A stretch of 54,613 bases of DNA, filler included, from Jimgerdemannia flammicorona (GCA_003990765.1; 2 parts of 2 records of this genome joined end to end with filler, not necessarily neighbours in it); one strand, 5' to 3'; counted from the first letter of the whole stretch, positions 10,037 to 40,005 are shown. Notes: generated by a model from the sequence alone, not told the origin. A program made the numbers and translations.

Positions 10037-12722
10037 ATGGAGGAAACACCTGTTAATGCCGTACGTTCCCAATGAGGATCCTCTATTGTGGCGAACTGGT
10101 CTCCTCTTTATACTAACACATCTACCCATTCACTCGCCCGCCACAGGCACATCACTTCGCCAACATTGCAGAGGAGGCCAAAGAGAATGAGCAATGGGTA
10201 AAGGCCATGGAGTCTCATTTTCGTGCTGCAGGTAAGCGATTGAGAGTTTCTAGAGAGTGGCCAAGGAAATTGAATTGGCCGCGATCCCCGTGCTGGTTTT
10301 GCGCAAACGATGAAGGAGAGTCGGCTGCGACTTTTCGTAGCGGCGGGATCTACAGCCACAGCTTTGGTGTAACGCACACTCGGTTTTGTTGGTTGCCCCA
10401 GAACAATTTTTACTTGCTATGGACTATACATCGGATCCAGAGGTGAGGTATCCCGATTTTTCATCATGTTTGGCGATTATTTTTTCTAAAAGCGCCTCAC
10501 TATCTCCCGTCTCCACAGGCAATCCGAACCCTTAAGCTCCTCCGCTCAAATCACACCCGCCAAGGCAAGGACATCCAACGCCGTCTCGCCAATCAGTCGC
10601 AACAAGCTCGGGCCAACCCTGCCGCGGAACCCACGCGCTCCCAATCCAACCCCTCACCCGCCTCTTCCCCAACATCGCAGCAGACGAACAATCTCTACGA
10701 CCTCGCTAAGTCCGCGGCGGATGACGGCGCCGACGGTATGCAGGGAACGAGAAGGAGGCATTCCGTTGCGGCGTCGTCGAGGTTGCATACGGAGAATTCG
10801 GACGAGTCGACGAGCACGTCGAGGTCATCGAAGATTGATGAGTCGTATATGGTATTGAAGGGGAATTCTAATGACGTGAGTGTGGTGGCGCTTATTTTGC
10901 ACTTTTTATACAGTGGATCTCACGGCATAAGGAGAAGATGGGAATACGAGGCAATCGTACTGCATCGGGGAGAGTGAGATGCAATGCCTCATCCAAAATT
11001 TACTCATCGCCCGCCCTATTTAATATTGCACATACGCCAACTTAGGACGATTCAGACCCGTTCAACAAATTCTGGAATGTGGTCGAAAATCTTGTCCAAA
11101 AACTCTCCAACCCGGCCGTCGCATTCACGACCGTTCCCCTCAATGTTAACGACCCCGCGGCACTATTCGACCCTAGTAATCTCTATGGCCTCGCCAATCC
11201 CATGGCTCCGGCGGCGGCCGTTCCGCAGATTGCGGGGAAACCTGCGGTCCCCGGAAAGGGTGTAATTGGTGGCGGTGACGAGGCTGTAGCACAATCTGAT
11301 GTGGCTGGTATGTTTGGATTTTTTTTATCGGTCGGAGAGATGTGTACTTATACGCCTTCGGCGTCCTGAGTCCCCAAGTCTATTCTCAATGTAGAAAAGG
11401 TCACTGCCGCCATGATGGAATCTTACTATCTCGTGGACGACTATCAGCGAAACTTGGCCGGCAAGAGCGGACTGAAGGCTCCATCGACGGTAACGCAGGC
11501 GAATATATCGGGCTCAAAACGGTCGGGATTGGTGGATACGACTTCGGTGGCAATGTGAGTAGTGTTGTTGTTGTTGTTCTGTCACGACGATGGATGGGAG
11601 TAACTCGTATCGCCATGCTATATAGAATCCCCAATAAGACACTCGAAGAGTACGCAGTAGAAAATCAGCAACTCAAAATGATGGTTGACCAATTGTCGAG
11701 GCGGGTTATGACGCATGAGAAGGTTCCACGTAGCTTTCCTCTTTCGCTTCCTTGTGGATTATGGCATTGATGAAGTATCCATAATCTGATTGGCATTCCT
11801 ATGGTGTCGCTTATAAAACAGTCAGCAGAGGAGGCAAACATTCTTAAGAGCAGTATCATCCAGTTCCGCCATGACGTGCTGCGGATAAAGCAGAGTCAAG
11901 ATCTAATGCGATCGTCCGTCGCCATGGGCCCGAGACATCCAACCACACAGTTTGGGCCGTCGCAGCATCTTGATAGTTCGATCGGTAGGTTGCGCAAGTT
12001 TTTTTTTTTTTTATGGAGAAGGTCGTATACGTATAGGAATGTCAAGGACCTTTATTCCGAGCCCACTATTTATGGTATGTTTTCGTTTCGTAGCTCCAGG
12101 CACGAACCCATTACAGAGAAGGATCAAAGACCTGGAAGACGAAGTGCGGATACTCAGGATGGAGAACGGGAAGCAGCGGGATCTAATGGCCAAGTACAAG
12201 GAGCGGTGGGAGAAGCTCAAAGAGTCTGCCAAGAAACGACGGAGCGAGAAACAGGCTGCGGCTAACGGCGAGGCGGACCCGACATCCACGAAATTACCGG
12301 CGGCAGTGGCAGCGGCAGCGAAACCACCTTTACCTTTACTCCGGTCGGCGACTAGATCCTCTCCGCCAATTCCACCGCCAAAACCCTCCACACGCCCCAT
12401 CTCTTTATCGACCGGTACCGTGCGAACATACTCACCTCCTCCCCTCCCCTACACGCCAGCGACCGCCGACGTCGACGTCGACGTAGACGCGCACGCTATG
12501 TTACCCCCGTTTGCCGCACAGCCAATGGCCACGTCGATGCCCGCACCACCGACGTCGACGTCCCCACCAACGTCCACTAAGATCAGGCTGAAGGATCTAC
12601 AGCACCATGTGGCGACGGAGGATGAGATGTCCAAGGCGTATTCGGCGGGGGTCGTGGTGGTGAGGGGGATGAAGGGTGCAGAGGGGGGGGTGGATGAGGA
12701 AAGGGTGAACGAGGATAAGTAG
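10037..12722 (+). CDS. NRBF2/Atg38-like autophagy PI3K complex I subunit (N-terminal MIT domain, C-terminal coiled coil); multi-exon
   Basis: Spliced N-terminus MEETPVNA-AHHFANIAEEAKENEQWVKAMESHFRAA-EQFLLAMDYTSDPE-AIRTLKLLRSNH resembles the NRBF2 MIT helices (PLNLAH..AA..A..SLELQRDSH). Also DPFNKFW..VENLVQKLSNP.AF and coiled coils KTLEEYAVENQQLK and LEDEVRILRMENGKQ..YKERWEKLKESAKKRR. Confidence 0.72.
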
Positions 12723-13150
12723 ATATGCAGGATGAACGGGACGGACTTTCGGGAATGGATGGGGCCGAGTGTCGGTGTGTTTGTTAATGAGAGCGGGGGA
12801 GAGCATTGGGTGGGGATGATGGGGTAATAATGGAGACAGACCGGGGAGAGACTCGTGGTTTGGGTTATTTTTTTTCCATGGGTGGGTCATGTCTAATCAA
12901 CCGCCGGAAGGTTCCACCAATGTTTTAGCATGCTATATTGACTATAATGGCTGTAGATGATTTCACTATATAAACCTTCTCTCTCTCTACATGTGTTCTT
13001 TTCATTTTTCTCTACTTTTTACAAAATGAAATATTGGGTTTATTATTTTTTTATTAGTACTGTTGTTATTTATCAGATATAAAGTATAATAAATAAATAA
13101 ATAAAATAAGTAAAAAATTAATTTATTTACAAATGATAGATAGGTTATAT

Positions 13151-13184
13151 GGGGCGTGCTGTAACAAAACCAGACAAAGTGAAC
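13151..13184 (+). repeat. Left terminal inverted repeat
   Basis: Reverse complement of 22371-22404 with one C/T difference at a CpG. Confidence 0.9.
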
Positions 13185-13321
13185 GTGTGACGTAATCAAT
13201 TTTTTTGTAATGTTTAACACGTATTCGACGCGCGCCTTGTAGATCATTGCCACCGACCATTCCTCCAATTTCCGCTTGAATCGCATTTCTCTGCCTGTGT
13301 TTTCCTGTTCTCGTGGCTAGG

Positions 13322-16300
13322 ATGCTGTCCAACGACATTATTGATCGTCTTGATTACCCTGGTCAATATCCATTCCACTACTTTGCATCTTCACATACTT
13401 TTTTAATGAACTAAATTTCCATTCTCTTCCTCTCACCAGTGTACTGGAGCAGGCCTCATACCGAATGGGGTTCGATTGTCGATTGGGACATGTTTTATAT
13501 TGATCAAATGCCAGGCAGTACACTGCGTGATTCCCATCAAGCACTGGCAAGGGATCTGAATACGCTTATCGACAACCTCCTTACTAAAAGCCGTGAATGT
13601 CAGAAAGCTAAATCTCTCCAGGCCCTTTTGAATGTCAGTGCATCTTTTTTTTTTTTTTTTTTCTTCTCCAGTCACAAGTATAGTGCAGCTCTGCTTAACC
13701 ACACCCTGCGACTGCGGTCGAGCGACTTTGTCGTGTAAGGCACCCTGCGGCGTGCCTGAAGTGGGAAGTGTGTTACGGTCTAGACTTTTAGTCACATCGT
13801 ATCATGCGCGGTTGAGCCAAGTTAGAAGCGTGCATGTTCTTGTCCGGAGTGCTTAACCACACCCTGCGACTGCGGTCGAGCGACTTTGTCGTGTAAGGCA
13901 CCCTGCGGCGTGCCTGAAGTGGGAAGTGTGTTACGGTCTAGACTTTTAGTCACATCGTATCATGCGCGGTTAAGAAATCGTTCTCTTGACTTTATACACA
14001 TTGTAATGATAAACATATTACTAAAGCATTTTTTATTCTGCCGCTTTTTCAGAAAAAGCCTTCAAGTGGTATATGGCATCATTCGCATGAGCTTGAAAAA
14101 TTATCCGTGCGTGAAAGGCTAGAAAAGGTGAGTGAAACTTTTAATAGTTTTTTATTCAGATCTCGATGTGAATTTTCATACTTTCTTATACGTACATAGC
14201 GGAAAGCTGAAAGTCAAGCTATAGCATATGCTACAGAAAACGCCTCTAAGAAGCTTAGGACACATGCACAAGTGCAGGGGCAAAAGGTTCGTAAAATTGT
14301 AGTTGTATTGTAATCCTTCTGGTAAATGAGAAATTGATTAACATTATTTACAAAGGTGGCCGAGCGCGGCAACGTTGCTCTCTCGTCTGTTGAAGTTGAA
14401 GAGCAAAAGGTAAGTTTATTGCTCTGATCTGGCCAAAATGTTTAAAGTGCGATCATTGTTACATATTTATCCGGTCTTTTGCCGGCGTCGAGAATGAACT
14501 TGTTGATGCTGTCCTGAAATCAAAGCGGAAGCATTCGGTTGATAACTTCTAATAACATCTTTATTCGATCTAATCATACAGGATATTGCAGATGACCACG
14601 AGCAGGAAGAGAACACCGAGGAATCTGTATCAGAACCAAACATCAAAGATCAAGACGAGGTAAAGCTTTAATTCTTAATTTTATTCGGGATCGTTGATGA
14701 TGGACAATTATGTTTTACACAGTTTTTTCGAAACCTCAAATTAAATTATTCTCTTTTATATTATAGGATCTTCAAAAAGCTTGGGAATTTGAACGGTCAA
14801 TTCCTGGCTGGCTTGGATGTATCCACCAACATCGCAAAAAGGTTACCACTGCAAGTGATTCCACCTTGCAAAGCCAAACAGCATCCAAGTGAGTTCAAAT
14901 GGATATGGTGTTTATGGTTTTTCCATGAGCCGAATATCTTATTCCAAAATTTCCTTGTGGTAGTGTCATTTCATGGCATATTATAGACGCGTGTGATTTG
15001 AAATTAACCGATATCATCACGCAGCAAGAGTTCTTGGAACTACAAAACGACATAACTTCTTATCTGCCATCGGGATGGATGGTGTTGGAGCCCCCAGCTG
15101 AAAGATGCCTTTATTCCATTTCAATGGTTGGTAATTATGTCAAATATGTATTGCCCGTTGTTCTCTTCAATTCATTAACTCGACTTTAACTTCCAGCTGA
15201 ACAAGAAAGAACTAAAGAAAGTGGCCAAGACTGTGTTATATGATGGCATTCGCGGGGCCATAAAGGAGATTCGAAAGATTCCGGCTATTCGAAGCAAAGA
15301 CAAGAACGAAAACGAAAACCCCTTCCTTGACTCCCAATTTATCAATGATACAACTTCCGATGATAAAATTATCCAAGAAGACGATTATAACCACCCAGAT
15401 GTCTGTTACATCCTCGAACTCCTTCGCTATACGTGAGTATGGGAATCTGATATATGGCCGGTTCCTTGAAATAACTATAATTTACTTATATGGACACATT
15501 TCTCAACTAGGTACAAGATGATCAGCAAGAAGATACCGCAGCGGACAAATTCTGAGCGGGATATTGACATATTTTTTAAATCTCATATGTTTTCCTGCTT
15601 CGATGACATCTTGGATACGCATTTGTATGTTCAATTTGTTGATTTTCGTGTGCTGTACATGGCTGATGCTCATGAATCCTTTATTACCATTCACATCAGC
15701 GGAGAGGTTGTGTCTAGGGCCTCACGGAATCGTCGTATGCAAGCAATCGATGCATCTGCTGACGCGGAAGGCTATCATTTGGACTGGATTTTTACGGTAT
15801 ATATCTGCTACTTTCTGCTTCTTGTCCTGGATCGTTGCAATGGTTATTGACATTCCTGCACACAGAAACACGACCTTGCGAAGAACCTTACCTGGGGACA
15901 AGAGTTTTCTCTCTGCGAGCGGGCAGGGTCTAAAATTGAAAACGGCAGAAAGATCCTTGATAACACGCTCAAGGTGCAAAAAACACTTCGGGACATGCAC
16001 CGAACGTTACTAGATACCTTGTCTGAAGCCGGTGGTGGAGTTCTCCCCGCAAAAATTATTCAAGCTTTCGGGAAATTGCTTCTGCCTGGATTTGTTTCAT
16101 CCGGGTTCTTCGTTCGGGTTTTGTTGAATGTGTACCTCGGTGGTGGGTACTACGGGTCCACAAAGCTGGCAGAATTTGATATTCCCACCCTGTCGGAGGA
16201 GTTGGGTCGGGTTGTAACGATGGCACGGACAATGTTGAATGTTAAGGTAAACGGAAAGTAAATTCTTTTTTTTTTTTTTTTTTATTTTTGTTGATTTTTT

Positions 16301-16490
16301 TTTTTTTTTTTTTTACTTTTGCTGACGTGCTTTGTTTGTTTCAATGTAGAATATCCTCAGACAAACTATAAAAACTTTCGCATTGATGAAGGAAGCCGCC
16401 GGGAAGCGACGTCATTCTATGGACGACGTGTTGGTGCCGCCAAGAGTCAAGGAACAGGTGACCCCTAAAAAATTACGGTCAAAAAAGTAG
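13322..16490 (+). CDS. Intact multi-exon protein with C-terminal restriction-endonuclease-like PD-(D/E)xK fold (Crinkler-associated REase-like); transposon cargo
   Basis: About 14 exons splice in frame: MLSNDIIDRLDYP-VYWSRPHTEWGSIVDWD...SERDIDIFFKSHMF...F-GEVVSRASRNRR...GYHLDWIF-...QEFSLCERAG...TLKVQKTLRDM...VTPKKLRSKK*. The GE..S.AS..RR / G..D / E....E.G pattern resembles REase-fold proteins expanded in early-diverging fungi. Confidence 0.7.
13692..13971. repeat. Two identical 122-nt self-complementary repeats (13692-13813, 13850-13971) separated by a 36-nt unique spacer, intronic
   Basis: Direct comparison shows the two copies are identical. The spacer 13814-13849 is GAGCCAAGTTAGAAGCGTGCATGTTCTTGTCCGGAG. 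Each unit has several hairpins. Confidence 0.93.
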
Positions 16491-18024
16491 GATAGTAGCT
16501 AGTTGGCGGTAAGGGAAGTGAAAGACAGCATGAAGCTTTTCACGGTTCGGCAAGAAGTCAAATGAATACGATTATGGTTTTTCATGTATTTCGGGGCAAG
16601 TAGGACAACTATAATGGGCTGTCTTGTATTATTGTGAGCAGAGTGCGTGTATTAAAACGTGTTGATATCATTTGTGAGAGTTTATGCAAAAGACAGGGCT
16701 TGTGAAAAAGTTGTCGTTTATCCAAGTCATCAAAGATATATAATGAAAATGATATAGGACTATATATAAAAATAAGTATGAAACTAATTTACATAAAGTC
16801 CACTATAGAACTGAAAAACTATAGTATCATTAGGAGCATTTTGAAACAAGAGCAAGGTGAGAAACTTGCTCTGTATGTTTTCAAAGTGTCTGATATTAAA
16901 ACCATTCAAGAATATTTTGATAAAGAGAGGATTACTTATGAAATTTATCAACAATTACATGACTATTTCAATAAAAGCATAAATCTCCCTCATCAAAAAG
17001 ATACATATTTCTGAATTAAATATTAAGAAGCAAGAATTAACAGAAATATTCCAAGAATTAAGAAAGAAAGGAAAAATATCAGAAGAGTAAAAAATTGCAT
17101 AAGCATATATATAAGAGTATTCCTATATATTCTTTAATCTACTATGTAGTGAAAATTTAACAAAATCAGACAAACTGTATATAAAATATAAATATATGGT
17201 AAACAATACAATTTTGAATAAATATGAGAAAGCTTTGCAATTTTTAGAAGTAGGCTATGGCTGTGGTTACTTGACTAAGATACTCAAAGAAGAATTTGCT
17301 AAATTGTATAAAGCTTTTTAAGCTCTTAGTAAGCCTGAACAAGATATTTTCTTAATGGCCTAACTCAGATCTATAGATAGGAGAGTGATCAATACTAATC
17401 AATATCTCAAGAACAAGACTTACATCAATAAGAGAACTATTTACTACTAGAATCATAATACCCCTATTTACCAAAAAAAAACTTACCTCAATATGCTTAA
17501 CATTGGCTATAATTATTTTGAAAATATCTGAAATCACTTGCTCAAAAATAGTCTTCTATTGTGAGTTTACAGTAATATAAAGAGAATGTCACAGTGAAAA
17601 CCCAAGATAGTTATTAATAAAGATGTGGCTACTGTAGTGAAAAATTTTCTCTTAAATTATACCAAAGTCTATAGTTTATTTAGTCCAGTCAGAAATATTA
17701 ATTGAGTTATCTAATTAATTATCTTTTTACTAGCAGAAATGAGCTATAAGTCCATTTACTGTGATTTTTTAGCTGGCCTAGAAGAGGATAATACTCTGTA
17801 TATACTCAAATATGATGTTTTTTGCAAACTATAGTATCAGTTAACTCTGTATATCCAAATTATAAGCCCCTAAATAGATTTATGTGATACTTGTCAATAC
17901 TTATAGAATAACTTATAATTCAAAGCTCATAAAGAAGAAGAGGCTCAGGATTTATTAAAGAGATATAAAGAGCATCTCATCAAAGCTAAGTTAGAATGAA
18001 ACTATTATAACAAAAATATAAAGT

Positions 18025-19537
18025 CAATCGCACATCTCTCTCTGGTACAATTTGCGTTATACAAACTTCAAGCAATGGTTTTATATACAACTCGGAGAAA
18101 CAAACATGGGCAATATGGGCAACACAGACAACACGGGCAAGACAGACAAGACAGGTAAGATGGCAAGACGGGCGACATGGGCAAGATGGGCAAGATGGGC
18201 AAGATGGGCAAGACAGGCAAGACGGGCAAGATGGGCAAGACGGCAAGACGGCAAGACGGGTGACATGGGCAAGACAGGCAAGACAGGCGAGACAGGCAAG
18301 ATGGGCAAGATGGCAAGACGGTAAGACGGGCGATATGGGCAAGATGGGCAGATGGCAAGACAGGCGATATGGGCAAAATGGGCAACATGGGCAACATGGG
18401 CAACATGGGTAACACGGGCAACACGGGCAACACGGGCAACATGGGTGGGCAAGATGGGCAAGATGGGCAAGATGGGCAAGATGGCAAGATGACAAGATGG
18501 GCAATATGGACAAGATGGGCAAGATGGGCAAGATGGGTAAGATGGGCAAGACGGGCAAGACAGGCAAGATGGCAAGATGGGCAATATAGGCAAGATGAGC
18601 AGATGGTAAGACAGGAGATATGGGCAAGATGGACAAAATGGGCAAAATGGGCAAAACAGGCAATATGGGCAACACTAGCAACACAGGCGGGTAACATGAG
18701 CAATACGGGTGGGCAATATGGGCAACATAGGCAGATAACATGGACAACATGGGCAACATGGGCAACACGGGCAACACGGGCAACACGGGCAATACGGGTA
18801 ACACAGGCAGGCAATACGGGCAACACGGGCAATATGGGCGGGTAACATGGGCAACACAGGCAACATGGGCAATACGGGCAACACAGGCGGGCAAGATGGG
18901 CAAGAAGGGCAAGACAGCAAGATGGGCGACATGGGCAAGATGGGCAGACAGCAAGACAGGTGATATGGGCAAGATGGGCAAAACAGGCAAAACAGGCAAA
19001 ACGGGCAACACGGGCAACATGGGCAACACGGGCAACACGGGCAACATGGGCAACATGGGTAGGCAAGACGGGCAAGATGGGCAACACAGGCAACATGGGT
19101 AATACGGGCAAGATGGGCAAGATGGGTAAGATGGGCAAGATGGGCAATATGGGCAGGCAACACAGGCAATACAGGCAACATGGGCGGGCAAGATAGGCAA
19201 GATGGGCAAGACGATAAGATGGCAATACGGGCAACATGGGCGGGCAAGATGGGCTAGATGGGCAAGACAGGAGGCACTAATAGGGGTAGGTCAGGTGCAC
19301 TAGATGCCAAGTACTTGAGGTGGTTGGGGCTCACAACCCATACCCACTGAGTAGGGTAGGCCAGGTAGGAGGATCTAGTTACTTGAGCAGTGAGGTCGCA
19401 ACTCACACCCTAAAGGTGCAAGACTAGGAGTGGGTTGAGATTGGGGTAGAATGGGACTACTGATGTTGTATGAGGATATGTGGCATGTTATAGATAGTTA
19501 ATAAATGAGTAATGAGAGAAAAAAAAAAAAAAAAAAA
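18025..19537 (+). mobile_element. Poly(A)-tailed retro-insertion (non-LTR-mediated) consisting mostly of a minisatellite
   Basis: TSD AAAAATATAAAGT at 18012-18024 and 19538-19550. AATAAA at 19500, with poly(A) from 19519. The transposase frame resumes across the insertion (NYYNKNIK|LAEEQE). Confidence 0.8.
18100..19270. repeat. 9-bp-unit minisatellite (GGCAAGATG / GGCAACATG / GGCAACACG variants)
   Basis: More than 100 degenerate tandem units. They account for the many overlapping repetitive ORFs here. Confidence 0.95.
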
Positions 19538-20300
19538 AAAAATATAAAGTTGGCAGAAGAACAAGAAAACTCATCAATCAATATTCACTGATAAATATTA
19601 GGTTTTAATATTACAGTATTGATACTATAGCTCATTATAGTTATAACTGAGCCCAAAATGTCTACATCTCTCATTCTGATCAACAAATTGATAAAGTGTA
19701 TTATCTTAGTGCTTATAAAGTGCACTTGTTTAGTATCAGAATAAAGCAGTAAGAGAATAAATTAACTATATACTAGATGAGAATGAATAGCTTGAAAAAG
19801 ATCTCAATAGTACATTTAGCCTAGTCTTTGATAGAATCAAGCAATTGAATAAAGGTAAAAAGTACTTAAAAATTACTTATGATAATATATATAGATAAAA
19901 CAAAAATAATATTACTCTTTGATTTTACCTGTATCTGATAATTACTGATTATTATAAAATTATTAAATTAAACTTTATGATTCTAAGCTATACTAAATTC
20001 AAATATAATAGTAGCTTTAGACTGATCAAAAGACTTTATCACAAGACTATAGTAAACTGTGTAGATTATATTATAGATGTAATAAAAAGGTCCAGTATTG
20101 CTGGACTAAATAAAGCTCAACATTATAATAGTAATGAAGGTTTTTATTATTATATATGATATTATAAATAGTCTAAAAACTTATTTTAAAAAATTATCTG
20201 GCCTACAAAAGTTTCAATATTTTCTTTTTACCAATACTAATTCCAGAGTAATCAAAGCCCAAGAAGTCACAAATAGACCTTTTCAAGAATTCAAGCTATT

Positions 20301-20329
20301 GATCCATTAAAAAAAAAAAAAAAAAAAAA
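20301..20329 (+). mobile_element. Minimal 5'-truncated retro-insertion (8 nt plus poly(A))
   Basis: AATTCAAGCTATT is duplicated at 20288-20300 and 20330-20342 around GATCCATT(A)n. Confidence 0.7.
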
Positions 20330-22370
20330 AATTCAAGCTATTAAAGACTAGTAAATTTGAAGCTTCTAAGTCTATAGAAAAAATCAAAGCTTTGTTATTT
20401 TCAGTACTTAAGCCTCTTTCTATAGAATTGAAATATCAGAAGTACCTTTATCATAATATTTATCTCTTTATCTGAGATGAATTTAAAGATATTACTTATC
20501 TCAAGTCAGTATAAAAAGTAATTAGATAATAATTAACTTTTATTTCTCTTTTTTATTTTCTCAATAACTAGTAAATAAGTAGTTAATGAAATAATAATTA
20601 TAAAAACTACTCCTAATCTAATTCAAGGAGTTTAATTGGTATTTGGCTCCTCTATTTTATTAGTTTCCAATCCAGTTAATTTTTCTCTTTTGGTTTATAG
20701 TTCTTGTTTTTATTCTGAAGTTTGATTAATAATCTTTTCTAACTCTTTAATTCTCAGTCATACTTCAGTAATTTTCTCTCTTTTTTCCTTTGCTTTCTCT
20801 GAAATAAGTAAATGGATATATATATCTTTTTTTTTGTATTTTAGATAATCTTTATTATCTTTTTATTTAGTATAGTAAGTTTTGGGATCTCTTATTTTTT
20901 TTAGCAATTCTTTTATCTTCCATTATGTCTTAAAATTGACTATTTTTTGTAGATCTATATTGTCTTTATTATTTTTGCAATTTGAATCTAGGAAATAAAA
21001 ATTATTAGATTTTATATTCTAGATATTTCTCTTTATAACTTGCAGGGATTTCTACTTCTTTTCTTCATAGTTTTGCAGTCTTTTCTTTAAGTTCACATCT
21101 AATTACTAAATCAGTGATAAATGATCTAATTTCCATTTTTTGGATGAGTTTCTGACAGACTTCTCCAATTTGGTCTCAAGTTTTTTGATCAACTACATTG
21201 ATATTATTAGATAAGTGATTTTTGGTAAAGATAGTTATATTTCCTAATTTGCAGTATAATTTGGTAACAATTTTGCTTCTTTCTACAATAATAGTATTAT
21301 TTTCTATTATATTGAATTTTTTTTTTACTTGCTCAGTTCCTTCTAGGGAGAAAGCTTTTTATGATATTCTTTTAATTTCTAAACTTTTATAATTCTTCTT
21401 ATATATATTTGGGAACTATTTATATATAAAAATAAGGTGGATTTTGGATAGCAAGTTTTTCTATTAATATACTTACTTTATAATCTGCTGGATTATATAC
21501 TGGATTAATCTTTTTAATAATATCTTTAAGTATAGATAAAATATCTACTCATTCTTGCCTAGCTACTTCCCTAAGGTTTTCAGTATAATGTTTGGTATAC
21601 AATACTATATGAGCTTTGGAGTTTTGTTTTAAAACCACACCAGTGCTTACAGTTCTCTTTAAATTAGAGACCAGAGATTTAAGTATTTCTTTTTTTGCTA
21701 ATTTTATTTTATCACATATATATATGATAAACTATTTTACTTCTTTTAGCACTTTTGAGACAAATATAACTCAGAGTGTTATTTGGTTTTTAGGTAAAAT
21801 GTTGAACTATTTTGCCCCATTTGATTTGTTTGTGGTAATTCTGATATTATAAATATTTATACCTACAACTATCTTCATAAGCAGTAATATCTCAATTTAA
21901 TATAATTTTGCATTAAGGACAAAATATAGTTATTCTATCTCATCTGCCACTTCCTTTAGTTCTAAGCAATCTTATCCAAAAAGGTCAATTAAAATTTTCT
22001 TTTTTCTTACATTTTTCTAAGGCCTTGTGAAAGAACTTTATTTTATTTTTCTCTCAATCTTTATTAGTATTTTTATCTAACTCTTTTTGTAAGAGAGTTT
22101 TGGTACATTCTTAGTAACAAAACTCAATTTTTTCTTATTCTTCTTTATCTTATCAATTGATAGTTAATCTCTCTTTAATATTATTATAATTAAAACATTC
22201 TTTTTTTATGATAATTTTTTTTACTAAAAAAAAAAAAAAAATACAGAGAGATAATAATAAAGAAACATCAAAGCAAAGAATTGTGGATTATATTTTAACT
22301 TGCTTATTATAATTATCATGTATAATGATATTGAATGATTGATTAAAAGACTACCTAAATGATATCAAAT

Positions 22371-22404
22371 GTTCACTTTGTCTGGTTTTGTTACAGCACA
22401 CCCC
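22371..22404 (-). repeat. Right terminal inverted repeat
   Basis: GTTCACTTTGTCTGGTTTTGTTACAGCACACCCC followed by ATAT. Confidence 0.9.
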
Positions 22405-22861
22405 ATATCATATTTATTTATAAATATAATCAATAATCTTAATAATAAAGTTTATAAATAATTAAAACTATTTTTAAAGCTAATATTTGTTGTTTTAACT
22501 TACATCCTGAAATTATTTTAAAACTTATATTTTTTATATAAAATGTACTACCATATTTATAACCTTATAATTTATCTGACTATTTGATATCTAACTTCAA
22601 TAAAGTAAGATAAAGATATTAATAATAAATAACACAAGATAATATGATTTAAAGAGAGATATTTTTCGAAATAAAAAAGATAAAGTAGACAAATATATTG
22701 TCAGAGATGTACAGAAGCAAGATATACCATTGGCTAATACTGTATCTGAGTCCAACTCAAAGTCTCTTGCAAACTTTTGAAGAGGCTTGTGCCTGTTTTA
22801 TGGCGAAGTGGTAAATTTTCAACAACCATAGAGCCGAGGCCACCTCTGTCCGTCACACGAC

Positions 22862-22921
<60 letters not shown>

Positions 22922-23640
22922 CCCTTTCTATGCTTTTGTTCATAAGTAACATCGCCGGGTCGCTACTCGAGGTTTGAGTAATCCCAAAGTACAAACCCAT
23001 CAACGTCTCCCGGGCGTGACGGACCGCTGGCGACAACCCTCCGAGCGCACAAACGTATCGTCGTTCAGATGGCGGTTCGAGGCGGCGGGAGGTATTCGTC
23101 CCGTCTGGGACGACAATGCTCTCCTGAGCAGAAGCGGAAAATTCTGTTCCGGTAGGTCTGTTTTCCGGAGAGATGGACATCCCCTAAGTCGGTGTGGTGG
23201 AATGGGAACAGCTACCGTTTGCCAAAAAAAAAAAAATGGTTACGTCATTAAGTGGGCCAATGCAACCTCGAGTACCACATGCCATTCGAGAGGTGTATAT
23301 AACACGAGGAATGTGTTTAAAGAGTGGACAGGTGAGGGATATATCATCGGGGGTTTCTTTCCAATCAACCATGTCACACCAAAACCAACTAGCGTCAGGC
23401 GCATTTTATTGGAGCTGGCAAGTTTGATGATGGAAGCAGATCGCAAACGGTGTACAATCATGGATAGAAAATAGCGTCGATAGCAATGTGCATGGATGGA
23501 GGTCGAATTAATTGTGGATGTGCTGTGTGGATGATCAACCCGACCTTACTAAAGTCGTATATTTTCTATCGCTCACAAAACGACGAACCGTTCCAACCTT
23601 CTTACCCTTCCAACAAATCCATGGACTATTGTCTCTTTGG

Positions 23641-24126
23641 CTATTCTAACCCTTCGATCCTTCTCTCCTCCTTCTCTTTTTGGGTTTTCCGGTACGTATC
23701 GAGTTTTTTCTTTTCTTCTGGTTCCGGCCGCCTCCTCCACCCCTTCAACTTCCTCTTAACCGTCTGCTCGTAGAGTTTCGATTTTTCGGTCTCCCATTCT
23801 TCTTTGAACTCAGGCTTATCGACGTCAGGCTTGGTAGGCCAAGTAAAATCGTCGTCTAAAGTGACGATGGCCTTCTTGTAGGCACCCTCCCGTCGGATCT
23901 CCTTGCCCCCGCGGCGAGTGATTTGCGTGGCATAGTTCATGGTGCGGATGTCGAGGATCTTGACGCCGTAGATGTTGGTCAGGTAGGAGAAGATGTCGAA
24001 TTTATTACACCGGGGCGGCACCCGAAAGACCACCTGGTTAGCCGGGAGTGTCGGGCTGCGCACCATCCTAAAGATGAGGTTGGGGAACCAGACTTCCCTT
24101 AAGCCTTGGCCGAAGCTCCTGCTCAT
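23641..24126 (-). CDS. MRP20: Mitochondrial ribosomal protein uL23m (Mrp20)
   Basis: VWFPNLIFRMVR...VVFRVPPRCNKFDIFSYLTNIYGVKILDIRTMNY...YKKAIVTLDDDFTWP matches the L23 family pattern. Single exon. Confidence 0.9.
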   Translation of the reverse strand: MSRSFGQGLREVWFPNLIFRMVRSPTLPANQVVFRVPPRCNKFDIFSYLTNIYGVKILDIRTMNYATQITRRGGKEIRREGAYKKAIVTLDDDFTWPTKPDVDKPEFKEEWETEKSKLYEQTVKRKLKGWRRRPEPEEKKKLDTYRKTQKEKEERRIEGLE

Positions 24127-24271
24127 GTTTGCAATTCGAGGTGCGGAGGGACGCGTACAGTTTCCAAGACAACACAGGTAGTTTGTGACGTCTCATCGGA
24201 TTTGATTTTTCTTTTTTTGAACGATCGGGTGGCTTGAACTCATTGCCAATACCTTCTGTACCTTCTTCGCC
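24127..24271. promoter_or_regulatory. Short bidirectional promoter shared by MRP20 and UTP15
   Basis: 145 bp between head-to-head ATGs. Contains TGACGTC and the PAC-like CTCATC around 24186-24197. Confidence 0.55.
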
Positions 24272-26381
24272 ATGTCGACAGAGTACAAGAAGCTCACCCT
24301 GAAGAAGTATCCGCGCTTGCCGGGCCGCAAGACCCCCGAGGCGAGGTACTGGAGGAAGTTCAAGGTCAGTAGCTATCGACACTTCACCTGATGCACCTTG
24401 GAAGTACTCTGACCGTCCCACTTTACCTACCTACCTGTAGTCTCCCATCCTCATCAAAGAATACGCCTCCGTCACCGCCGTCCACTTCTCTCAAGCTGCC
24501 CCCTACGACTTTGCAGTCACCTCTTCTACGCGTGTTCAGATCTACTCGTCAAAGACGCACAGCGTGAAAAAGACAATCTCCCGTTTTAAGGATGTCGCCA
24601 GCAGCGGTTCCATCAGGGCTGACGGCAAACTCGTCGTGGCAGGCGACGCGACCGGATTGGTGCAGCTGTTTGATATTAACTCACGCGCGATTTTGAGAAC
24701 GATGAGAGGCCACACACAGTATGTTAATGCGCCAATTCTTCCTTCGAACCTGATGTTGAACCATTGAAGGATGGAACGCGTAGACTGACATTGCTCTATT
24801 ATCCATTCCGATAGCCCTGTGCACACAACCAAATTCTCGCCCAACAACACACACATACTCTCGACGTCTGACGACAAGACCGTACGGATATGGGACATCC
24901 CAACCGAGACTGCCGTTTCCGTATTTGCCAATCACGAAGTTCGTCCCTCTTTCTATTCGATCAAACACACCAACACCGTAAACACTCCCACCATTCAAGC
25001 TCAAATCCTCACCATGTATCCTCTCCCATTCTTTCACACAGGATTATGTACGCGCCGGCCTTGTCAGCACCGACAACCCGCACCTCGTCCTCTCCGGCTC
25101 CTACGACCAAACCGTCAAGCTCTGGGACCTCCGCTCCAACACCTGCGCCATGAACATGAACCACGGCGCGCCCATCGAGGACGTCTCCATGTTCCCCGGC
25201 GGCGGTGTTGTCGTCTCCGCCGGCGGGCCCACACTCAAGATCTGGGACCTCCTGAGCGGTGGAAGGCTCATGAACTCCCTATCCAACCACCAGAAGACCA
25301 TCACTAGCCTGTGTTTCGACGGGAGCTATTCGAGGCTGTTGACCGGGTCGTTGGATCAGCATGTCAAGGTTTATAACGTGCAGGATTATAAGGTTGTTCA
25401 TAGTGTGAAATATCCAGCACCTGTGCTCAGCGTCGCGTTGTCGGTGAGTGGTTGGAATCTCTTATGATTTTGCTCACCCCCCAACTCGGAGCCCGAAGTA
25501 GTGTGATCTGACTAGATCCATAACGTTTATATTTTACAGCCCGATGATACACATCTCGTGGCAGGTATGACGGGTGGGTTGCTGTCGATCCGGCAACGGC
25601 AAGTCCGCGCGACCGAGATTGCAACGCGGCAGGTGGAGGAGGATTACATTCAGGGCGGGACTTACAAATATTTCGTGCGAGGTCAAAATAACGTTGGGGC
25701 ACAGGTACGTTGCTGACTCTACTGCATTTGATGACAACACCCATATTACCCACCAACCTTCTTCTGTCTCTTCACAGGACGACTTCAAAGTCGAGTCGAA
25801 GCGCAAGAAGCGCTTGCAGAACTACGACCGTTTTCTCAGGGGTTTTCAATACGGCAACGCCCTTGATGTCGTCCTTCGCACCAACCAACCCGCCATCATC
25901 ACGGTCTCGCTCTTTCAGGAGTTGATTCATCGCGACGGCCTTCGCCAGGCGTTGTCGGGCCGCGACGATATCTCGTTGGAACCTATCGTTCAGTTCTTAG
26001 TCACGCATGTGAATAACCCTAAATATACCAATCTGTTGATCGATGTGGCAAACGTGGTGATTGGTATGTGTTATTTGATGTCTCGGTCTTCGTGCTGTTT
26101 TTTCGAAGATATTAACACTACCCTAATTACAACGTCATGCAGATATGTACTCCCCTGTACTTGGCCAATCCCAGTTCATCGATGAGCTCTTCCACCGGCT
26201 CTGCGACAAGGTGAAGCAGGAGATCAATTTCCAAAAGGAATTGGTGAAAGTCGTAGGCGCGCTGGAGATGGTGTTCGCCAAGTCAGGGGGTGGGGGCAGC
26301 GCCGCAGCAGCGGCGGCGGCGGTTGGGGGAAGCGTAATTGGGAGCCCGAATGTTGGAGTGGGACAGGCCGAGATAAGGTAA
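24272..26381 (+). CDS. UTP15: U3 snoRNA-associated protein 15 (WD40 repeats plus UTP15 C-terminal domain); multi-exon
   Basis: TPEARYWRKFK-SPILIKE...PYDFAVTSSTRVQIYS...ISRFKDVA.S..IRADGKLVVAGD, WD repeats (SGSYDQTVKLWD, NHQKTITSL) and C-terminal ELIHRDGLRQALSGRDD. Confidence 0.93.
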
Positions 26382-26790: not shown

Positions 26791-27209
26791 ATGCCTGGTC
26801 GTCTGGAAGGAAAGGTCGCCATTATCACCGGTGCCGGCAGGTTCGTTCACCAATCCCAAAACACCATTACTAGCGTCACATGTGTCAAGGACGCCTGAAT
26901 GGCCCACCACATTGGACTCTCTCTGCATTCCACTCGTGCTCACGCGTTCAAACTTTTTTCTCCCATGCTGCAACCTCCCGCCCTCCAGCGGCATAGGCTT
27001 TGAGTCCTCGGTATTATTTGCTAAGGAGGGCGCTCACATTATTGCCGCAGACATAAACGTCGACGCCGCCCAGGCCACCGTCGACAAGATCGCCACCCTG
27101 TTCGGCGCCGCGCACGACGACGGGAAACAGAGGGCCGTCGCGGTCAAGGCTGACGTGTCGAACGAGGAGCAGGTGAGGCAGTTGGTCGATCAGGCGGTGG
27201 AGAAATTTG
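26791..27209 (+). CDS. Short-chain dehydrogenase/reductase, 5' part only (truncated by assembly gap)
   Basis: MPGRLEGKVAIITGAG-SGIGFESSVLFAKEGA...KADVS contains the TGxxxGIG motif. Intron at 26841-26988. Confidence 0.88.
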
Positions 27210-27268
27210 GTAGGAGCTCTGTTGTGGCATGGGTGAACGGAGCGAAGCGGGCGATTTTTTTTTTTTTT

Positions 27269-27368
27269 NNNNNNNNNNNNNNNNNNNNNNNNNNNNNNNN
27301 NNNNNNNNNNNNTTAATTAATTAANNNNNNNNNNNNNNNNNNNNNNNNNNNNNNNNNNNNNNNNNNNN
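27269..27368. other. Assembly gap with artificial six-frame stop linker
   Basis: 100-nt N run containing TTAATTAATTAA at 27313-27324. Confidence 0.95.
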
Positions 27369-27379
27369 TTTTTTTGCCA

Positions 27380-28530
27380 ATAAGAAACAAAGTATGTACT
27401 TCATAAAACTCTACTAAACCTAGTGAACAGAGCTAATTAAATATGCCTCTCTATTCTCCCAATATTCTATAGAAATTCAAATACTGTTGCCAAACAAGGC
27501 ATGCCATCTCATCTCTAGACAATGGCTCCAGAATAATGCTTATAGAATTCTCTAATCATTATAAGCAACTGACATATAAGATCCTGAGACCTCTGCAAGT
27601 TTATTCCCTTTTAAGAAAAGTAGTCAAATACAAGTTTCTACTACTAAGAGCCTTATAGACAAAATAGATGAACTACTCAAGATTACTACTGTGAATCTTC
27701 AGAAAGCTCAATAGTATTAAGCTAAGTATGCTGATAAGAAATACTGTGATATCACTTACACTATTGAAGATCAAGTCCTATTGTCTACCAAGAACTTCAA
27801 AATACAATCTCAAGTCAACTGCCCTTTGAATAAGTTCCAACCCAAGTATATTAGACCTTTTGAGATTACCAAACAAGTCTCTATATCCTCCTACTGTCTC
27901 AAAATATCTGAAACCATGAGAGTATACCCAGTCTTTCATATGTCATACTTCAAGACCTGGAATTAGTCACTGCTCTACTCTGGTCAAATTTCTAAGCTAT
28001 CTGCTTCTGTAATTATTAAAGACTATATTAAGTATGAAGCTGAGAAAATTCTTAACAAATGAATTCATTATCACCTTTCTGAATATTTAGTCAAGTAGAT
28101 GAGCTACTCTGAATATGATGCTATCTGGGAACTACTGGTCAATCTCAAGAACTCTTAAGACCTAGTCTAAGACTTTAAGGTAAAATATATTGTCCAATCT
28201 CTATAGTGACTTTCTTGGATTATTGATGATATACAGTAATGATCAATGTCTTATATATTGGAAGTTTACTTTGGGACCCCAGAACTAGCAAAATATTTAA
28301 TGAATAAGAAGTCTATTGAAATAAAGCTACTAGCTGGGTTTGAACCCCTCCCAGTTGATTAGTCTGGTAATAGGCCCTCTGCCCTATATAATAATGGCCA
28401 ATTTCTACTAATATACTAATACAAGTTTGAGAAATTTTGATTAAGTATACATATCTAGTCTTGTGTTATCTAAGAACTTAATAAGGATATTAGTTCTTAA
28501 GAAAGAAGAGATGTAATAATTTCACAGTCA
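27380..28530 (+). mobile_element. Decayed chromoviral Ty3/gypsy 3' end (integrase C-terminus plus chromodomain)
   Basis: KFQPKYIRPFEI...YCLKI..TMRVYPVFHMSYFK (GPF/Y module), then YEAEKIL...EYLVK..Y..YDAIWE (chromodomain). A purine tract followed by TGTAAT lies near 28500-28517. Confidence 0.75.
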
Positions 28531-28537
28531 TATCTAG

Positions 28538-29903
28538 TATGATAAACCAAAATGTACCACCCAAATTATATCTTAACCAGATGATGCGAACAATTAGGCA
28601 AGATGACATAAACATACAGCATAGTAACCAGTAACCATTGCTGTAGAAAACTGTATAAATAGCCAGACATACCAGAAAGGGTCTGTTTACCTATACAGAC
28701 TCTGTATACCTGTTATAAGTAGCAGATCTATAGTTAGCCACATAGTAATCAGATATCAACCAACTTGTATAAATTACCCCAGAGACAAGAGTGAATAAAC
28801 CTCAGTCTGAAATACAAACACCAAAGAAGCCTCTACAGATTGAGCATTGATCCCCTTTCCACTCCAGTCTACTTTCTAATACAAAGAATGAGTTTGTTTT
28901 TAGTTTGCTTGCCAGATAAGCCTGAAGATTTGCCACCTAAGTTTAAGGAGAACTTTGCTGCCTTTTGAGTAACCTGCCACTTAAGGAATAAGCCGCCATT
29001 TCCAAGTAATCCTCCACCTTCTTAAGAAAGCTGCCTTGCTCAAGCCAGTTTCAGATGCAACTTTGCAGTGGAGCCAGTCTACAATATAACCCCATGCAAA
29101 CAAAGCCAGTCTTTGATATAACTTTGCCAAGAGACCCTTTCCCAAAGAATGCTACCAGTTGTTCATATTCCCAAAAGAGCCCAATCTGGAAGAACTCATG
29201 CCATCCAAGTTATTCCTAGTTGAAGCTGCCTTTTTCAAGAAGTCTGCTGATTCAGGAGAATCCACGTCTTCTGCCATTTTCAAGTTATCTGCCATATCCC
29301 TAGTTGAAGTCACCATTTTCAGGTTATCTGCATTCCCAGAAGAACCTGATCCATGCCATCTGAGTTATTATTCCCAGAAGCCTGCCAATTCAGGAAGAAT
29401 CTGCAATCTCCAAATTATTCATTGTTCCCAGTAAGCCTGAGTTATCAAGTTCTCCACTGCTAGTACAATTCCTAGTAAACCTGCACCCAAATTGAGTTAT
29501 CTACCATCACCCAGAAATTGCATACTTTTGAGATCACCACTGCCAAAGAAGGAAATCCTTAAATTGCCAGACCATTATATATAAGGAGATCATTGCACTG
29601 CACAAGAGATCGTCATGCCAGAAATCATATACTTTTGGAGATTGCATCACTATACAAAATTCTACCATTCCCAGTTGATCCAAGAAGGAAACCTATTCAT
29701 ACAAATCACTGCTACACCCAGAGAACAATCCCAATAAGGAAATCACTTGCAGATATCCAGTTTTGACTATTATAATGCTAAACACCAAGGACCTTAGGAA
29801 TCTTAGAACATTTTGTTGCTTTTTGACAAGTAACTGGGGGCTCAAGCCAAACTACATCAACCCCCAACCTTGTAATTTGCCTCCATTGAGCCGGCATATT
29901 ACA
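28538..29903 (+). repeat. 5' LTR
   Basis: Aligns with 37457-38866. Begins TATGATAAACC (a mutated TGTGACAAACC) and ends ATTACA. Confidence 0.9.
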
Positions 29904-29905
29904 TT

Positions 29906-29922
29906 TGTGGGCTCAACTGGGA
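29906..29922 (+). promoter_or_regulatory. Primer-binding site, tRNA-Pro-like
   Basis: TGTGGGCTCAACTGGGA here, and TGGGGGCTCAACTGGGA in the second copy (51743-51759, minus). Both resemble the tRNA-Pro PBS TGGGGGCTCG..CGGGA. Confidence 0.7.
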
Positions 29923-29938
29923 AGATTTCAAAATCGAC

Positions 29939-32350
29939 ATGACTTTTTAGCTCACAAGGACCTACAGTCAAACTAGATACATTTGATACAACACCAACCT
30001 CTGCCACTATAGGAGAACTAGTCATCACTAGCATTTGGATAGGAAGAGAAGTAATCACTTCAAGAATTGCCAACTATCCAGCATCAGAAGGATCTCAACC
30101 AGAAGTAGGAGACAGCACAGCCCGAAATCCCCAACCGGACCAACCAGACCAACAAGATCAACCAGATCAACTAGACAATACAGGCAGCCCAGCTAGAGAT
30201 TTTGAAGAACTCGTACAAGAACTAGAAGACCTTATCACATGGACCCAATACTTTACAGCCAGACACCCCACACCAGTCCCACCAATCTCACCAATAGAAC
30301 CCCTACCACAACCCCTTGCAGAACCAGAAGTAGCTCCTACAAGAATACCTAGACCTATTCCACCCCACTCAAGGACCAGAACCAGAACACCATCTTCAAG
30401 ATACCCAAGCACTGCTGTCTCTAGTGACAGTTCAGAAAGTGAATCAGAATCAGAATCTGAACTTAAACCAGAATCAGAAGAAAGTGATAATGAAATGGCC
30501 ACCTCATTGCCAACCTTTGCAGAATACTCAGAGTAAGATCCCAGAGAATTCCTTGATAGAATTGAAGGAATTGCAGCCTTGAGAAATCTCTCAGATGAAA
30601 GAAAAATCACCATCTATAAAGCTCAGCTCAGAGAACCAGCCAGAGGAATTTTCTATCAAACAGCAAATAACTGAGATTCAGAACTAGCAAGACAGATACA
30701 AGCAGCAATGTCTGATGAGCTAGAATATGAAGCCATGATCCACCAGCTCATTGAAAAATATGCAGGAAACAAAACCTGCTATAAGGCTCAGGAATCCATC
30801 ATAGGAATGAAGATGAATCTAGGAGAATCACCCAGAGCCTTCTTTACCAGAATCCAGAAGAGAATGCATTCTGCTGGGTTCAATGCCACCAACCAAGACA
30901 TCATAGGTCTAATGACTTTTATGAATGGAATTCCCCCAAATATTGCCCAGTATGTCCGCACCCTAGGCATCAGAAGGTCTGAAGAGCAAGTAGATGTGGC
31001 CCAAGGATTCTTTGATGTCAGGCAAGGAACTACCTAGAGTGATCATGATAAGAAGGAAGATAAAGAAGATATTCCGGTCAAAGCCCTGCAAGGACTCCTT
31101 CAAGGACAAGAAAGATCTGAAGAAAGAAGGCCAGCCAAGGAAGGAAAGAAGGATAGAAGCGAAATTCAAGACCTCAGCTCCAAGTTAGACTGATTGGTTG
31201 GACAAATTGAAAAACTCACCATATGTGAAAATCAGGACTATCAAAACAACAGAGGGTACCCACCACAGAGGAGCCAAGGTTATCCACCAAGAGATAACAG
31301 GAATTACCAGCAAAAAGAAAGAAGGTACCCTGTCTGAGACAGAGTCCAAGTCCAATGCTTCCACTGTGGACAATTCAGACACTATGCCACTGAATGTGAT
31401 AACAAAAGAAGTGACTGAAGGGACCCAGAACCAGCAAACCGAAGGAATGACACTCAGTACAAAAAGACTGAAGCCCATCCTATTGAAGATTTCGAGAAAG
31501 CAAGCAACAGTGAAGACTACAGTGATCTAGACTTATACCCTATCAAGATTACTACCTGAAAGACAGTCTACCCAGCAGAAAAGAGAAAGAGACCTGTAGG
31601 AAGGCCATCTAGGAATATCAGCAGAAGAATCATCCAAGAAGAAGATGAAGAACATGAGGAGGAACAAGTAGAAACACCTCCCCAAATCTCCTCACCTTTT
31701 GTTCCCAAGACAAATGAGTTGCTACCAGAGGATGAAGAAATGGAACAAGAAGAATGGAAATCTGTCACCCCAAAGCCCAAGAAGAAGTACACCCCAAAAA
31801 CCATGCCTAGAGACATCTACAATGAAGTCTGGCAGAAGATCCAAGAGGCCAAGATAGAAGTCCCTCTCCTGCAGTTCTTGCAACTGACACCAGCTGGGGT
31901 TCAAAACAAATTGCTGAGAACCACCAGGTCTAGCACTGGCTGAGTTCCAATCCCACAGCAAGAACCAGCCTCCATCCCTGTCCAAGCAGCTGAAAGACAT
32001 GTCAGCACCTACTTACATAGAGACATTGGAGGACAAAAACAAAAATCCTCATAGATACCAGAGCAGCTATCTGTGTTATTGCCAAATGATTCTTGGACAC
32101 CCTCCAATGGCCCATTGATGGACCATCCAACCTCAGCATCATAGTAGCAGATGGAGCCCAAACTCAACCCCTTGGAGAAGTATGAAATATCACCATCTCT
32201 CTTGGATACATTCAGTTCTCCATCTCTAAAGCTGTTGTCACTGAAGCTGTCACCTATGATATGATTCTTGGCACCAACTGGATGAAGGAAATGAATGCAG
32301 TTGTTGATATCGGCCAACAAGTACTCAAGTTTGATTACTGAGGCAAGAAG
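29939..32350 (+). pseudogene. gag (with CCHC knuckle) and aspartic protease of the gypsy element, disrupted
   Basis: QCFHCGQF..YATEC near 31350-31400. The protease motif reads LIDTGAAVCII in the second copy. Several in-frame stops. Confidence 0.8.
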
Positions 32351-33609: not shown

Positions 33610-34020
33610 TGCCCAGCATGCCCTGCTGCACCCCAAGGCCAAACCCCCAATGAAAGCCCACCCCAAGGATGTAGGATATGATCTTCACAGCCTGGAGGTT
33701 GAATCTATTAAGCCTGGAAAAACCTTCATGGTCAGAACCAGACTAGCCATGCAGCCACCCCAAGGAGCTTATATCCAACTGACCTCAAGGTCTGGACTTG
33801 CCAGACAAGGAATGATAGTGGAAGGAGGAACCATTGACCCAGGATATACAGGCGAAATCAAGGTTATCTTACACAACAGCAGTGCAGAATGGTACCAAAT
33901 CATTAGAGGACAGAAGATTGCCCAAGCAGTCTTCATGAAGGTCAAGACTCCACAGTTACAGGACGTCTCTGAACTAACTGAAGGAACAAGACAAGCCAAG
34001 GGATTTGGAAGTTCAGACAG
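33610..34020 (+). CDS. dUTPase domain of pol
   Basis: Motifs DVGYDL, SRSGLA, GGTIDPGYTGEIKVILHN, GQKIAQAV and RQAKGFGSS. Confidence 0.93.
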
Positions 34021-35841: not shown

Positions 35842-35899
35842 ACCAGAAGAAGAGTGCCCCAAGGAACTACACTCTAAAGGAAGCTCCTGAGACAATCAA

Positions 35900-37417: not shown

Positions 37418-37456
37418 AGAATAGCCTGGGACAGACTACCCTTCAGTCGGGGCTGA

Positions 37457-38866: not shown

Positions 38867-38870
38867 CTAG

Positions 38871-39900: not shown

Positions 39901-40005
39901 AGTCAGAACACAGTCATATAATCCTATCAAATTTAAATTTACTAATGACTTCTATGCTATTTATAGATTTACATACTGTCTGAATAAAGATTAATGAGAT
40001 CACTA

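Follow-up and report, generated by a model that had tools for sequence, protein, structure and literature searches.

A probable Sola-like element copy in Jimgerdemannia flammicorona that joins a transcribed gene to a hypermutated transposase

We focused on a 54,613-nt stretch of DNA from Jimgerdemannia flammicorona (GCA_003990765.1; hereafter, the window) and on the segment at 13151-22404 within it. This segment (9,254 bp, first bases 5'-GGGGCG) is probably an immobilised, mosaic copy of a Sola-like element with terminal inverted repeats (TIRs), in which a transcribed gene (hereafter, the passenger gene) lies beside a transposase destroyed by a process resembling repeat-induced point mutation (RIP). 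In the scenario that we favour, a multi-copy family of cut-and-paste TIR elements in this Endogonales genome would use a three-Asp transposase of the family DUF7869 and insert at ATAT. The left third of the copy (13151 to ~16715) carries a transcribed gene with 12 introns, whose family is expanded in Glomeromycotina and Endogonales, and the right two thirds would be the element's own transposase, which a RIP-like wave of C-to-T changes would have ruined before a poly(A)-tailed retroposed insertion split it. The gene module was presumably unique in the genome while the repeated transposase module mutated, and the introns it has kept suggest that it was gained at the DNA level. Today, any movement of the copy would depend on transposase provided in trans by an intact member of the family.

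The ends of the element are well delimited. A repeat search returned two arms of 44 nt (13147-13190 and 22365-22408, 9174 nt apart) that are 93% complementary, ATAT included. The 34-nt TIR core (GGGGCG...GAAC) occurs at 13151-13184 on the plus strand without mismatch and at 22371-22404 on the minus strand with one mismatch, and these are the only two matches in the 54,613 bases at up to three mismatches (expected 0.00, 100 shuffles). ATAT abuts the element on either side, so the TIR pair with flanking ATAT proposed in an initial annotation of this DNA was borne out, and its doubt whether ATAT is part of the TIR was fair, given that ATAT is constant at all three ends compared (two here, one in the metagenome contig L001 described below). 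The three ends have no bases in common beyond ATAT, and no further duplication outside it fits among them. From the sequences, ATAT may be a duplicated fixed 4-bp target, a hidden 2-bp duplication, or the element's own bases. A very high AT content is also seen in the intergenic DNA beyond the right end (22405-22700, GC content 0.14-0.18; a T54 run at 22864-22917), indicating that the AT-rich domain does not end exactly at the TIR.

The decayed transposase that had been proposed inside the element was confirmed. When stops were read through in six frames, DUF7869 (PF25273) matched at ~19785-20099 on the plus strand (E 4.4e-8; 33.4 bits, cut-off 26). An exhaustive HMMER search with 19569-20336 as query detected 408 proteins (E <= 0.001), and the top one is 63% identical. 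PF25273 was carried by all 18 relatives scanned; at E <= 0.01, none of them matched a Pfam family belonging to another superfamily, bar an AT-hook in one. Residues 3-579 of the relative P0234 (589 aa) are colinear with the relic in four pieces at 59-65% identity (tblastn), with residues 3-275 on 17193-18023, 281-342 on 19564-19740, 342-477 on 19737-20144, and 480-579 on 20155-20496. The 556 codons of the relic hold 20 stops (13, 1, 4, and 2 per mapped piece), in addition to two frame changes. The relatives have the conserved blocks SDLCxTC, HxSFDxAQ, DNCxGQNKNN, and GHTKFxxDxxFG; SFDxAQ, DNCxGQNKNN, and GHTKFxxD point to three conserved Asp in the family, for which a catalytic role seems likely. 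The relic's GQNKNN reads R-stop-NKNN, and its third conserved Asp is Asn. Contigs from four public runs (X1-X4) were mapped on 10500-25500 as transcript evidence, and their cover was nil at 17013-18014 and 19518-22022, which does not indicate silence.

To place the transposase family, we collected 227 profile matches at E <= 1e-10. The named ones among the best 120 of the 227 come from Gigaspora, Rhizophagus, Ambispora, and six animals, together with two proteins labelled as archaeal, and the named fungal relatives among these matches are all Glomeromycotina. The two archaeal-labelled proteins (P0266 and P0312, DUF7869, from a metagenome-assembled genome named Nitrososphaeraceae archaeon) nest among fungal and environmental sequences and are probably mis-binned eukaryotic contigs. 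No relatives were detected when IMG/VR was scanned with the passenger and transposase profiles. A literature search for 'DUF7869' gave no occurrence, and one for the transposase motif strings gave irrelevant matches only.

A scan of metagenomes with a 20-nt TIR core retrieved a single locus, the 2,769-bp contig L001. In order, it carries an uninterrupted transposase tail of 212 codons (PF25273, E 4.3e-16), ~2 kb of open reading frames (ORFs), the window's exact TIR core (34 of 34 nt), ATAT, and unrelated flanking sequence. Positions 1-609 of L001 aligned with 19843-20497 of the window at 68% identity (655 columns, 609 aligned bases, 46 gaps). The 162 substitutions from L001 to the window comprise 116 C/G>T/A changes, 19 in the opposite direction, and 27 transversions, and GC content over the alignment is 0.39 in L001 and 0.22 in the window. 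The L001 state matches the consensus of the transposase family, which makes the window's state the derived one. All dinucleotide contexts were hit, with the fraction of C changed being 0.58 at CpA, 0.58 at CpG, 0.43 at CpT, and 0.37 at CpC. CpG is absent at 16716-18028 and 19398-22404, the last one before the relic lying at 16715. The hypermutated domain thus begins ~230 bp past the passenger stop, close to the end of the passenger transcript, and the passenger gene was spared (CpG observed/expected 0.98, coding GC 0.45). Based on these sequence patterns, a process acting on repeated DNA may have damaged the transposase module and left untouched a module then unique; a gene module gained once the mutation wave was over would fit the data equally well.

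The transposase is also parted by an insert of ~1.5 kb, which falls between the positions of P0234 residues 275 and 281. The insert keeps its CpGs and is not hypermutated, and is a retroposed sequence that arrived after the hypermutation. Within it, a 9-bp minisatellite, (ATGGGCAAG)n, runs through ~117 units (18106-19270). The RNA-contig depth over the minisatellite is very high (22873 in X1), indicating that similar repeats are transcribed elsewhere.

The passenger gene starts 171 bp inside the TIR start (ATG at 13322, stop at 16488) and lies on the same strand as the transposase. Its best matches are the annotated J. flammicorona proteins P0001 and P0002, to which its model is 92-99% identical. 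Runs X1 and X2 belong to one organism and are labelled 'RNA?'; as their contigs have GT..AG joints also in genes nearby, they are transcriptomes. Ten GT..AG introns of the passenger gene were supported by RNA contigs of both runs (13362-13439 with edges ±1, 14128-14199, 14287-14355, 14410-14581, 14660-14766, 14889-15024, 15127-15196, 15433-15510, 15625-15699, and 15797-15865). An RNA-contig piece skips from 16244 to 16348, and passenger transcript cover extends to ~16760. From the root metatranscriptomes X3 and X4 came short spliced pieces of the gene, which carry 1-8 differences. The 593-aa frame requires an intron at 13634-14052 (419 nt, GTCAGT...TTTCAG) and the acceptor 14964, and both are absent among the splice joints listed, beyond which there are 12 further joints; as contigs also drop rare variants, the productive splice form may exist. 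The two public models of the gene differ exactly at the choice between acceptors 14964 and 15025. A direct repeat of 125 nt (99% identical; 13692-13816 and 13850-13974, 158-nt spacing) lies in the putative 419-nt second intron.

Two other readings of this region were considered and rejected. A Transposase_21 match at 15449-15583 (E 0.012-0.06), which would make the passenger a CACTA-type transposase, is a chance match in intron 15433-15510 and adjoining bases. The stops at 15179-16261 could be taken as decay, and are introns instead according to the annotated homologues, tblastn, and the RNA contigs; a six-frame view of 13.2-16.4 kb is for this reason misleadingly broken.

The element appears to belong to a larger family. 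The RNA-contig depth reaches 5868 (X1) and 783 (X2) in the left-end bin and 1578 and 271 in the right-end bin, compared with ~50-190 or no cover beside the ends. Contigs diverge from the window at 13144-13147 and 13182/13193 on the left and at 22360 and 22408/22409 on the right, and ATAT is common to the departing contigs among the loose ends listed (there are 43 further ones). The depth peaks and the many departing contigs together show that the ~45-bp ends are multi-copy. In L001, five plus-strand ORFs occupy 642-2625, one Cys-rich and the others of coiled-coil type. No colinearity links this 3' module (610-2625) to 20498-22365 of the window, as a transition-tolerant local alignment scored 50.5 (shuffled mean 43.9, maximum 52.5), and tblastn of the L001 ORFs on the window returned the transposase only. 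The earlier description as a cargo-carrying element is upheld in that one TIR-bounded unit holds both the relic of a transposase and another gene, which is transcribed. The added claim that the element spreads this gene was not supported, with no second passenger copy seen and a mutation mosaic suggesting a gene module still unique at the time of the damage to the rest.

Table 1. Coordinates of the features in and around the element.
Feature	Position	Strand	Details
ATAT, left flank	13147..13150	.	Putative target-site duplication or fixed target; identical outside the right end and at the L001 end
Left TIR	13151..13190	+	34-nt core and weaker inner part; RNA-contig depth peak
Passenger ('cargo') gene	13322..16490	+	13 exons, 593-aa frame; homologues P0001/P0002, spliced RNA contigs, frame check, tree
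Intron of assembled transcripts, 136 nt	14889..15024	+	Seen in a single contig of X1 and a single contig of X2; productive alternative 14889-14963
Start of hypermutated domain and N-terminal half of relic	16716..18023 (relic 17193-18023)	+	P0234 3-275, 64.6% identity, 13 stops
Retroposed insert with poly(A) tail	18024..19537	+	12-nt direct repeat AAAAATATAAAG (target duplication) at 18012-18023 and 19538-19549
C-terminal half of relic, DUF7869 region	19564..20496	+	Two frame changes; P0234 map, L001 comparison
3' tail	20497..22364	.	AT-rich, CpG-free, without recognisable coding content
Right TIR	22365..22404	-	One G>A change compared with the left TIR and L001; RNA-contig depth peak
ATAT, right flank	22405..22408	.	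Sequence reading

The passenger gene has at least 76 relatives in a band of 198-632 aa, the named ones being all from Glomeromycotina, Geosiphon, Jimgerdemannia, or Endogone, and the ESM Atlas clusters of the family have 63-139 members. No Pfam domains were found in the family, save in one member fused to a kinase. The conserved blocks are NSERDID, EGYHxDWxFTxHDL, and EFSxCERxGSK. None of 25 family members matched the PD-(D/E)XK Pfam profiles at E <= 0.1; with 74 members at E <= 10, the best PD-(D/E)XK match was BamHI (E 0.059, one member), and Tex_YqgF appeared in three. A sequence-profile search of the PDB with the family gave no relevant match. A first AlphaFold model of the family based on 25 sequences was discarded (predicted local distance difference test score, pLDDT, 49.9). 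A model of P0029 based on 74 sequences reached a mean pLDDT of 71, with the conserved blocks at residues 403-434 below 50. Foldseek detected no match in the PDB to this model at E <= 0.001, and the best VIA Z, 8.1 to mitoribosomal proteins, falls in the range stated for VIA as noise. The neighbours of the ESM Atlas model of P0038 include PDDEXK_12, HSDR_N, and DUF7924 clusters, all under the Atlas bar, with template modelling scores of 0.65-0.69 by the hit for PDDEXK_12 and HSDR_N. A predicted nuclease-like domain in the passenger protein is thus a lead, not a result, and the restriction endonuclease fold assigned to it in the initial annotation gained no sequence support and only weak structural leads.

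The passenger phylogeny was built from 58 rows (the window model and 57 hits of at least 300 aa; P0001, P0050, P0051, P0062, and every shorter sequence were left out) by a quick method, with support from the Shimodaira-Hasegawa-like approximate likelihood ratio test (SH-aLRT) only. The window gene and P0002 are sister to nine Glomeromycotina rows (SH-aLRT 99), and 11 other Jimgerdemannia rows are scattered in several other clades, so that the Jimgerdemannia label requires seven changes. An ordinary single-copy host gene would not show such a pattern. Outside J. flammicorona, the passenger is closest to proteins of Glomeromycotina, with 54-71% identity over 252-475 aligned residues; the Jimgerdemannia paralogue P0015 is 44% identical to the passenger, and the remaining paralogues lie in other clades. 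Elsewhere in the tree, very short branches separate P0029 (Geosiphon pyriformis) from P0069 (Endogone sp.), two proteins with 96% identity whose hosts belong to different subphyla, and several genera of arbuscular mycorrhizal fungi are also interleaved at tiny distances. Recent transfer or cross-contamination of assemblies could account for these patterns.

As to the class of the element, the available text of PMC10741241 describes Sola elements as 2-9 kb in length, with DDD (three-Asp) transposases, 4-bp target-site duplications (TSDs), and TIRs of 11-1124 bp. The accessible part of PMC3627910 gives the TSDs of Sola2 as AT-rich AWWT, ATAT included, places Sola2 in hosts that include Dictyostelia, and describes chimeric members that vary in a passenger-carrying module. 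In the excerpt of PMC5751038, Sola1 and Sola3 occur in Rhizophagus, Mucoromycotina are without Sola1-3, and Endogonales are outside the published fungal hosts. The three Asp conserved in the relatives of the window's transposase would correspond to the DDD pattern of Sola, and the ATAT flanks match the Sola2 form given in that excerpt. The earlier 'Sola-type' label is plausible on the three Asp, the ATAT flanks, and the range over Glomeromycotina and Metazoa. The subgroup is ambiguous, as ATAT and the 5'-GGG start (the initial annotation gives 5'-GRG for Sola2 termini) point to Sola2 and the fungal distribution to Sola1/3, going by the descriptions available. None of the 18 relatives scanned matched transposase_36, and no 3-base duplication fits the four bases that the flanks have in common, making Zator, a transposase_36-derived group with 3-bp TSDs, an unlikely identity on the sequence data.

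Several observations weigh against the reading of a passenger-carrying Sola-like copy. The acceptor used in the assembled contigs of X1 and X2 is 15025, which lies 61 nt downstream of the productive 14964; in this form, a conserved IWWRIID-like block is lost, the frame shifts, and a stop follows after 226 codons, with a second frame of 338 aa starting at the start of P0001. The full, intact gene announced ~170 bp inside the left TIR therefore holds for its position, its 593-aa frame, and its transcription, with the caveat that the assembled splice form breaks the frame. No second passenger-bearing copy was seen in the RNA contigs of the four runs or in L001, which covers a 3' end only. Contigs of the same four runs, all RNA, showed no empty site, which bears on TSD length and mobility. 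As ATAT was constant at the three ends, matching flanks are no proof of a single insertion event. The Sola-type assignment is plausible on general features only, as compared with published descriptions, and Sola2 is nearly absent from fungi in the available text of PMC5751038. Lastly, the passenger family is multi-copy and its tree conflicts with that of the species, so that the gene may belong to the element and not be captured cargo. The passenger would then be a regular second gene of the element lineage, kept here while the transposase was lost, and its family, which fills Glomeromycotina and Endogonales genomes, would be element-borne. We consider this unlikely, in spite of the 76 or more homologues with their Glomeromycotina and Endogonales names, the Atlas clusters, the seven label changes that set the window gene with its nine Glomeromycotina sisters apart from 11 Jimgerdemannia rows, and the likewise Glomeromycotina names of the fungal transposase matches listed. 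The hypermutation stops sharply ahead of the passenger gene, which is unexpected if the gene sat in a repeated unit, and no fused or long linking passenger-transposase proteins were found among 5852 long candidates, which the search itself noted to be weak evidence.

A separate origin of the two ends is a still less probable alternative, in which a host gene would have been caught between the left end of one insertion and a decayed copy lacking its own left end. Such a history would fit the uninformative flanks, the abundance of the ends in transcripts, and the sharp difference in composition and mutation load between the left and right parts, but it needs two events and the loss of two inner ends. 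Moreover, the only two TIR matches in 54.6 kb are properly oriented and face outward, and the gene, with its start 171 bp away from the end, has the same direction as the transposase. It is also rather doubtful that the element is a TIR transposon outside Sola, with DUF7869 representing another three-Asp group, possibly unnamed, and a true duplication of 2 bp (AT or TA) within ATAT. The duplication length is indeed ambiguous within ATAT, and Dictyostelia, hosts of Sola2 in the part of the literature available, are missing from the best 120 of the 227 transposase matches. Against this, the three Asp, the AT-rich 4-nt flanks, and the range over Rhizophagus and metazoans match the Sola descriptions as far as these are available, and the 18 relatives lack matches to the Pfam families of other superfamilies as reported above. 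We retain the Sola-like, passenger-carrying copy as the probable reading.

A broader scenario, which we regard as speculative and improbable as it stands, is that the Sola-like family moved horizontally between Glomeromycotina and Endogonales with exchangeable gene modules, one possibly nuclease-like, and that the host inactivated its repeats by a RIP-like process undescribed in Mucoromycota. One hint is that L001 has the window's exact TIR core. Two unnamed proteins match the L001 transposase tail at 93% and 90% identity, and the Ambispora leptoticha protein P0315 matches it at 84% over 165 residues. In a transposase tree of 64 rows (L001, the relic, 17 named hits, and 45 unnamed ones of at least 150 aligned residues; quick method), the relic, L001, and the Ambispora row fall in a 14-row clade (SH-aLRT 97), inside a fungal clade apart from the animals. 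The transposase and passenger trees together hint at exchange between Glomeromycotina and Endogonales; contamination of single-nucleus assemblies or ancient paralogy may be alternatives to transfer.

The CpG content also varies at a larger scale, being normal at 1-27000 of the window (observed/expected ~1.0) and poor at 28000-54613 (0.04-0.17, GC 0.37-0.52, excess of TpG/CpA). This suggests that the CpG-poor block is due to methylation-driven decay of a repeat compartment, unlike the all-context C>T damage of the relic. A domain scan of 27001-41000, which takes in the start of the CpG-poor block, detected Ty3/Gypsy-type coding sequence with RVT_1, RT_RNaseH, rve, and Tf2-1 SH3 domains, including a dUTPase domain, and a second RNase H fragment on the opposite strand.

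If our reading is right, Sola-type elements extend to Endogonales, a lineage unsampled in the available text of PMC5751038, and Pfam DUF7869 gains a concrete context, being the transposase of a TIR element flanked by ATAT. The copy would then provide a clean natural case of a repeated module mutated to death beside a unique passenger gene that is still transcribed, and would bear on repeat silencing outside Dikarya and on gene-family growth in mycorrhizal fungi. The system is of a known type in an unusual host; passenger-carrying Sola2 elements and RIP-like mosaics both have precedents elsewhere. What this analysis adds is a RIP-like mosaic, a retroposon nested in the relic, a second copy of modular make-up, and a connection between DUF7869 and a TIR element.

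Compared with RIP in Neurospora and other Dikarya, the relic shows the same directional C:G to T:A changes (116 versus 19), with about half of its C/G hit in one block and the adjacent unique sequence spared, but only a mild context preference, and its host is a Mucoromycota fungus. Among the best 12 of 114 literature matches, the one work that combined RIP with Endogonales or Jimgerdemannia had a generic sentence on RIP only in the text available. The passenger family resembles PD-(D/E)XK nucleases in its conserved acidic and Lys-containing blocks and its Atlas neighbours PDDEXK_12 and HSDR_N, and differs in being without a Pfam or PDB sequence match. The element shares with the Sola superfamily, as described in the sources available, its DDD pattern, TIR length, size, and four AT-rich flanking bases, and its DUF7869 family shares the occurrence in Rhizophagus and animals; its host order, Endogonales, is not among the fungal hosts in the accessible part of PMC5751038. 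Another parallel is Sola2-Fanzor of dictyostelids, chimeric elements for which the available text of PMC3627910 reports a common module of transposase and ends, a varying passenger module, and TSDs such as ATAT. One copy of the window's type with its passenger is known here, and that passenger, placed 5' of the transposase, belongs to an intron-rich, uncharacterised fungal family, not to TnpB/Fanzor.

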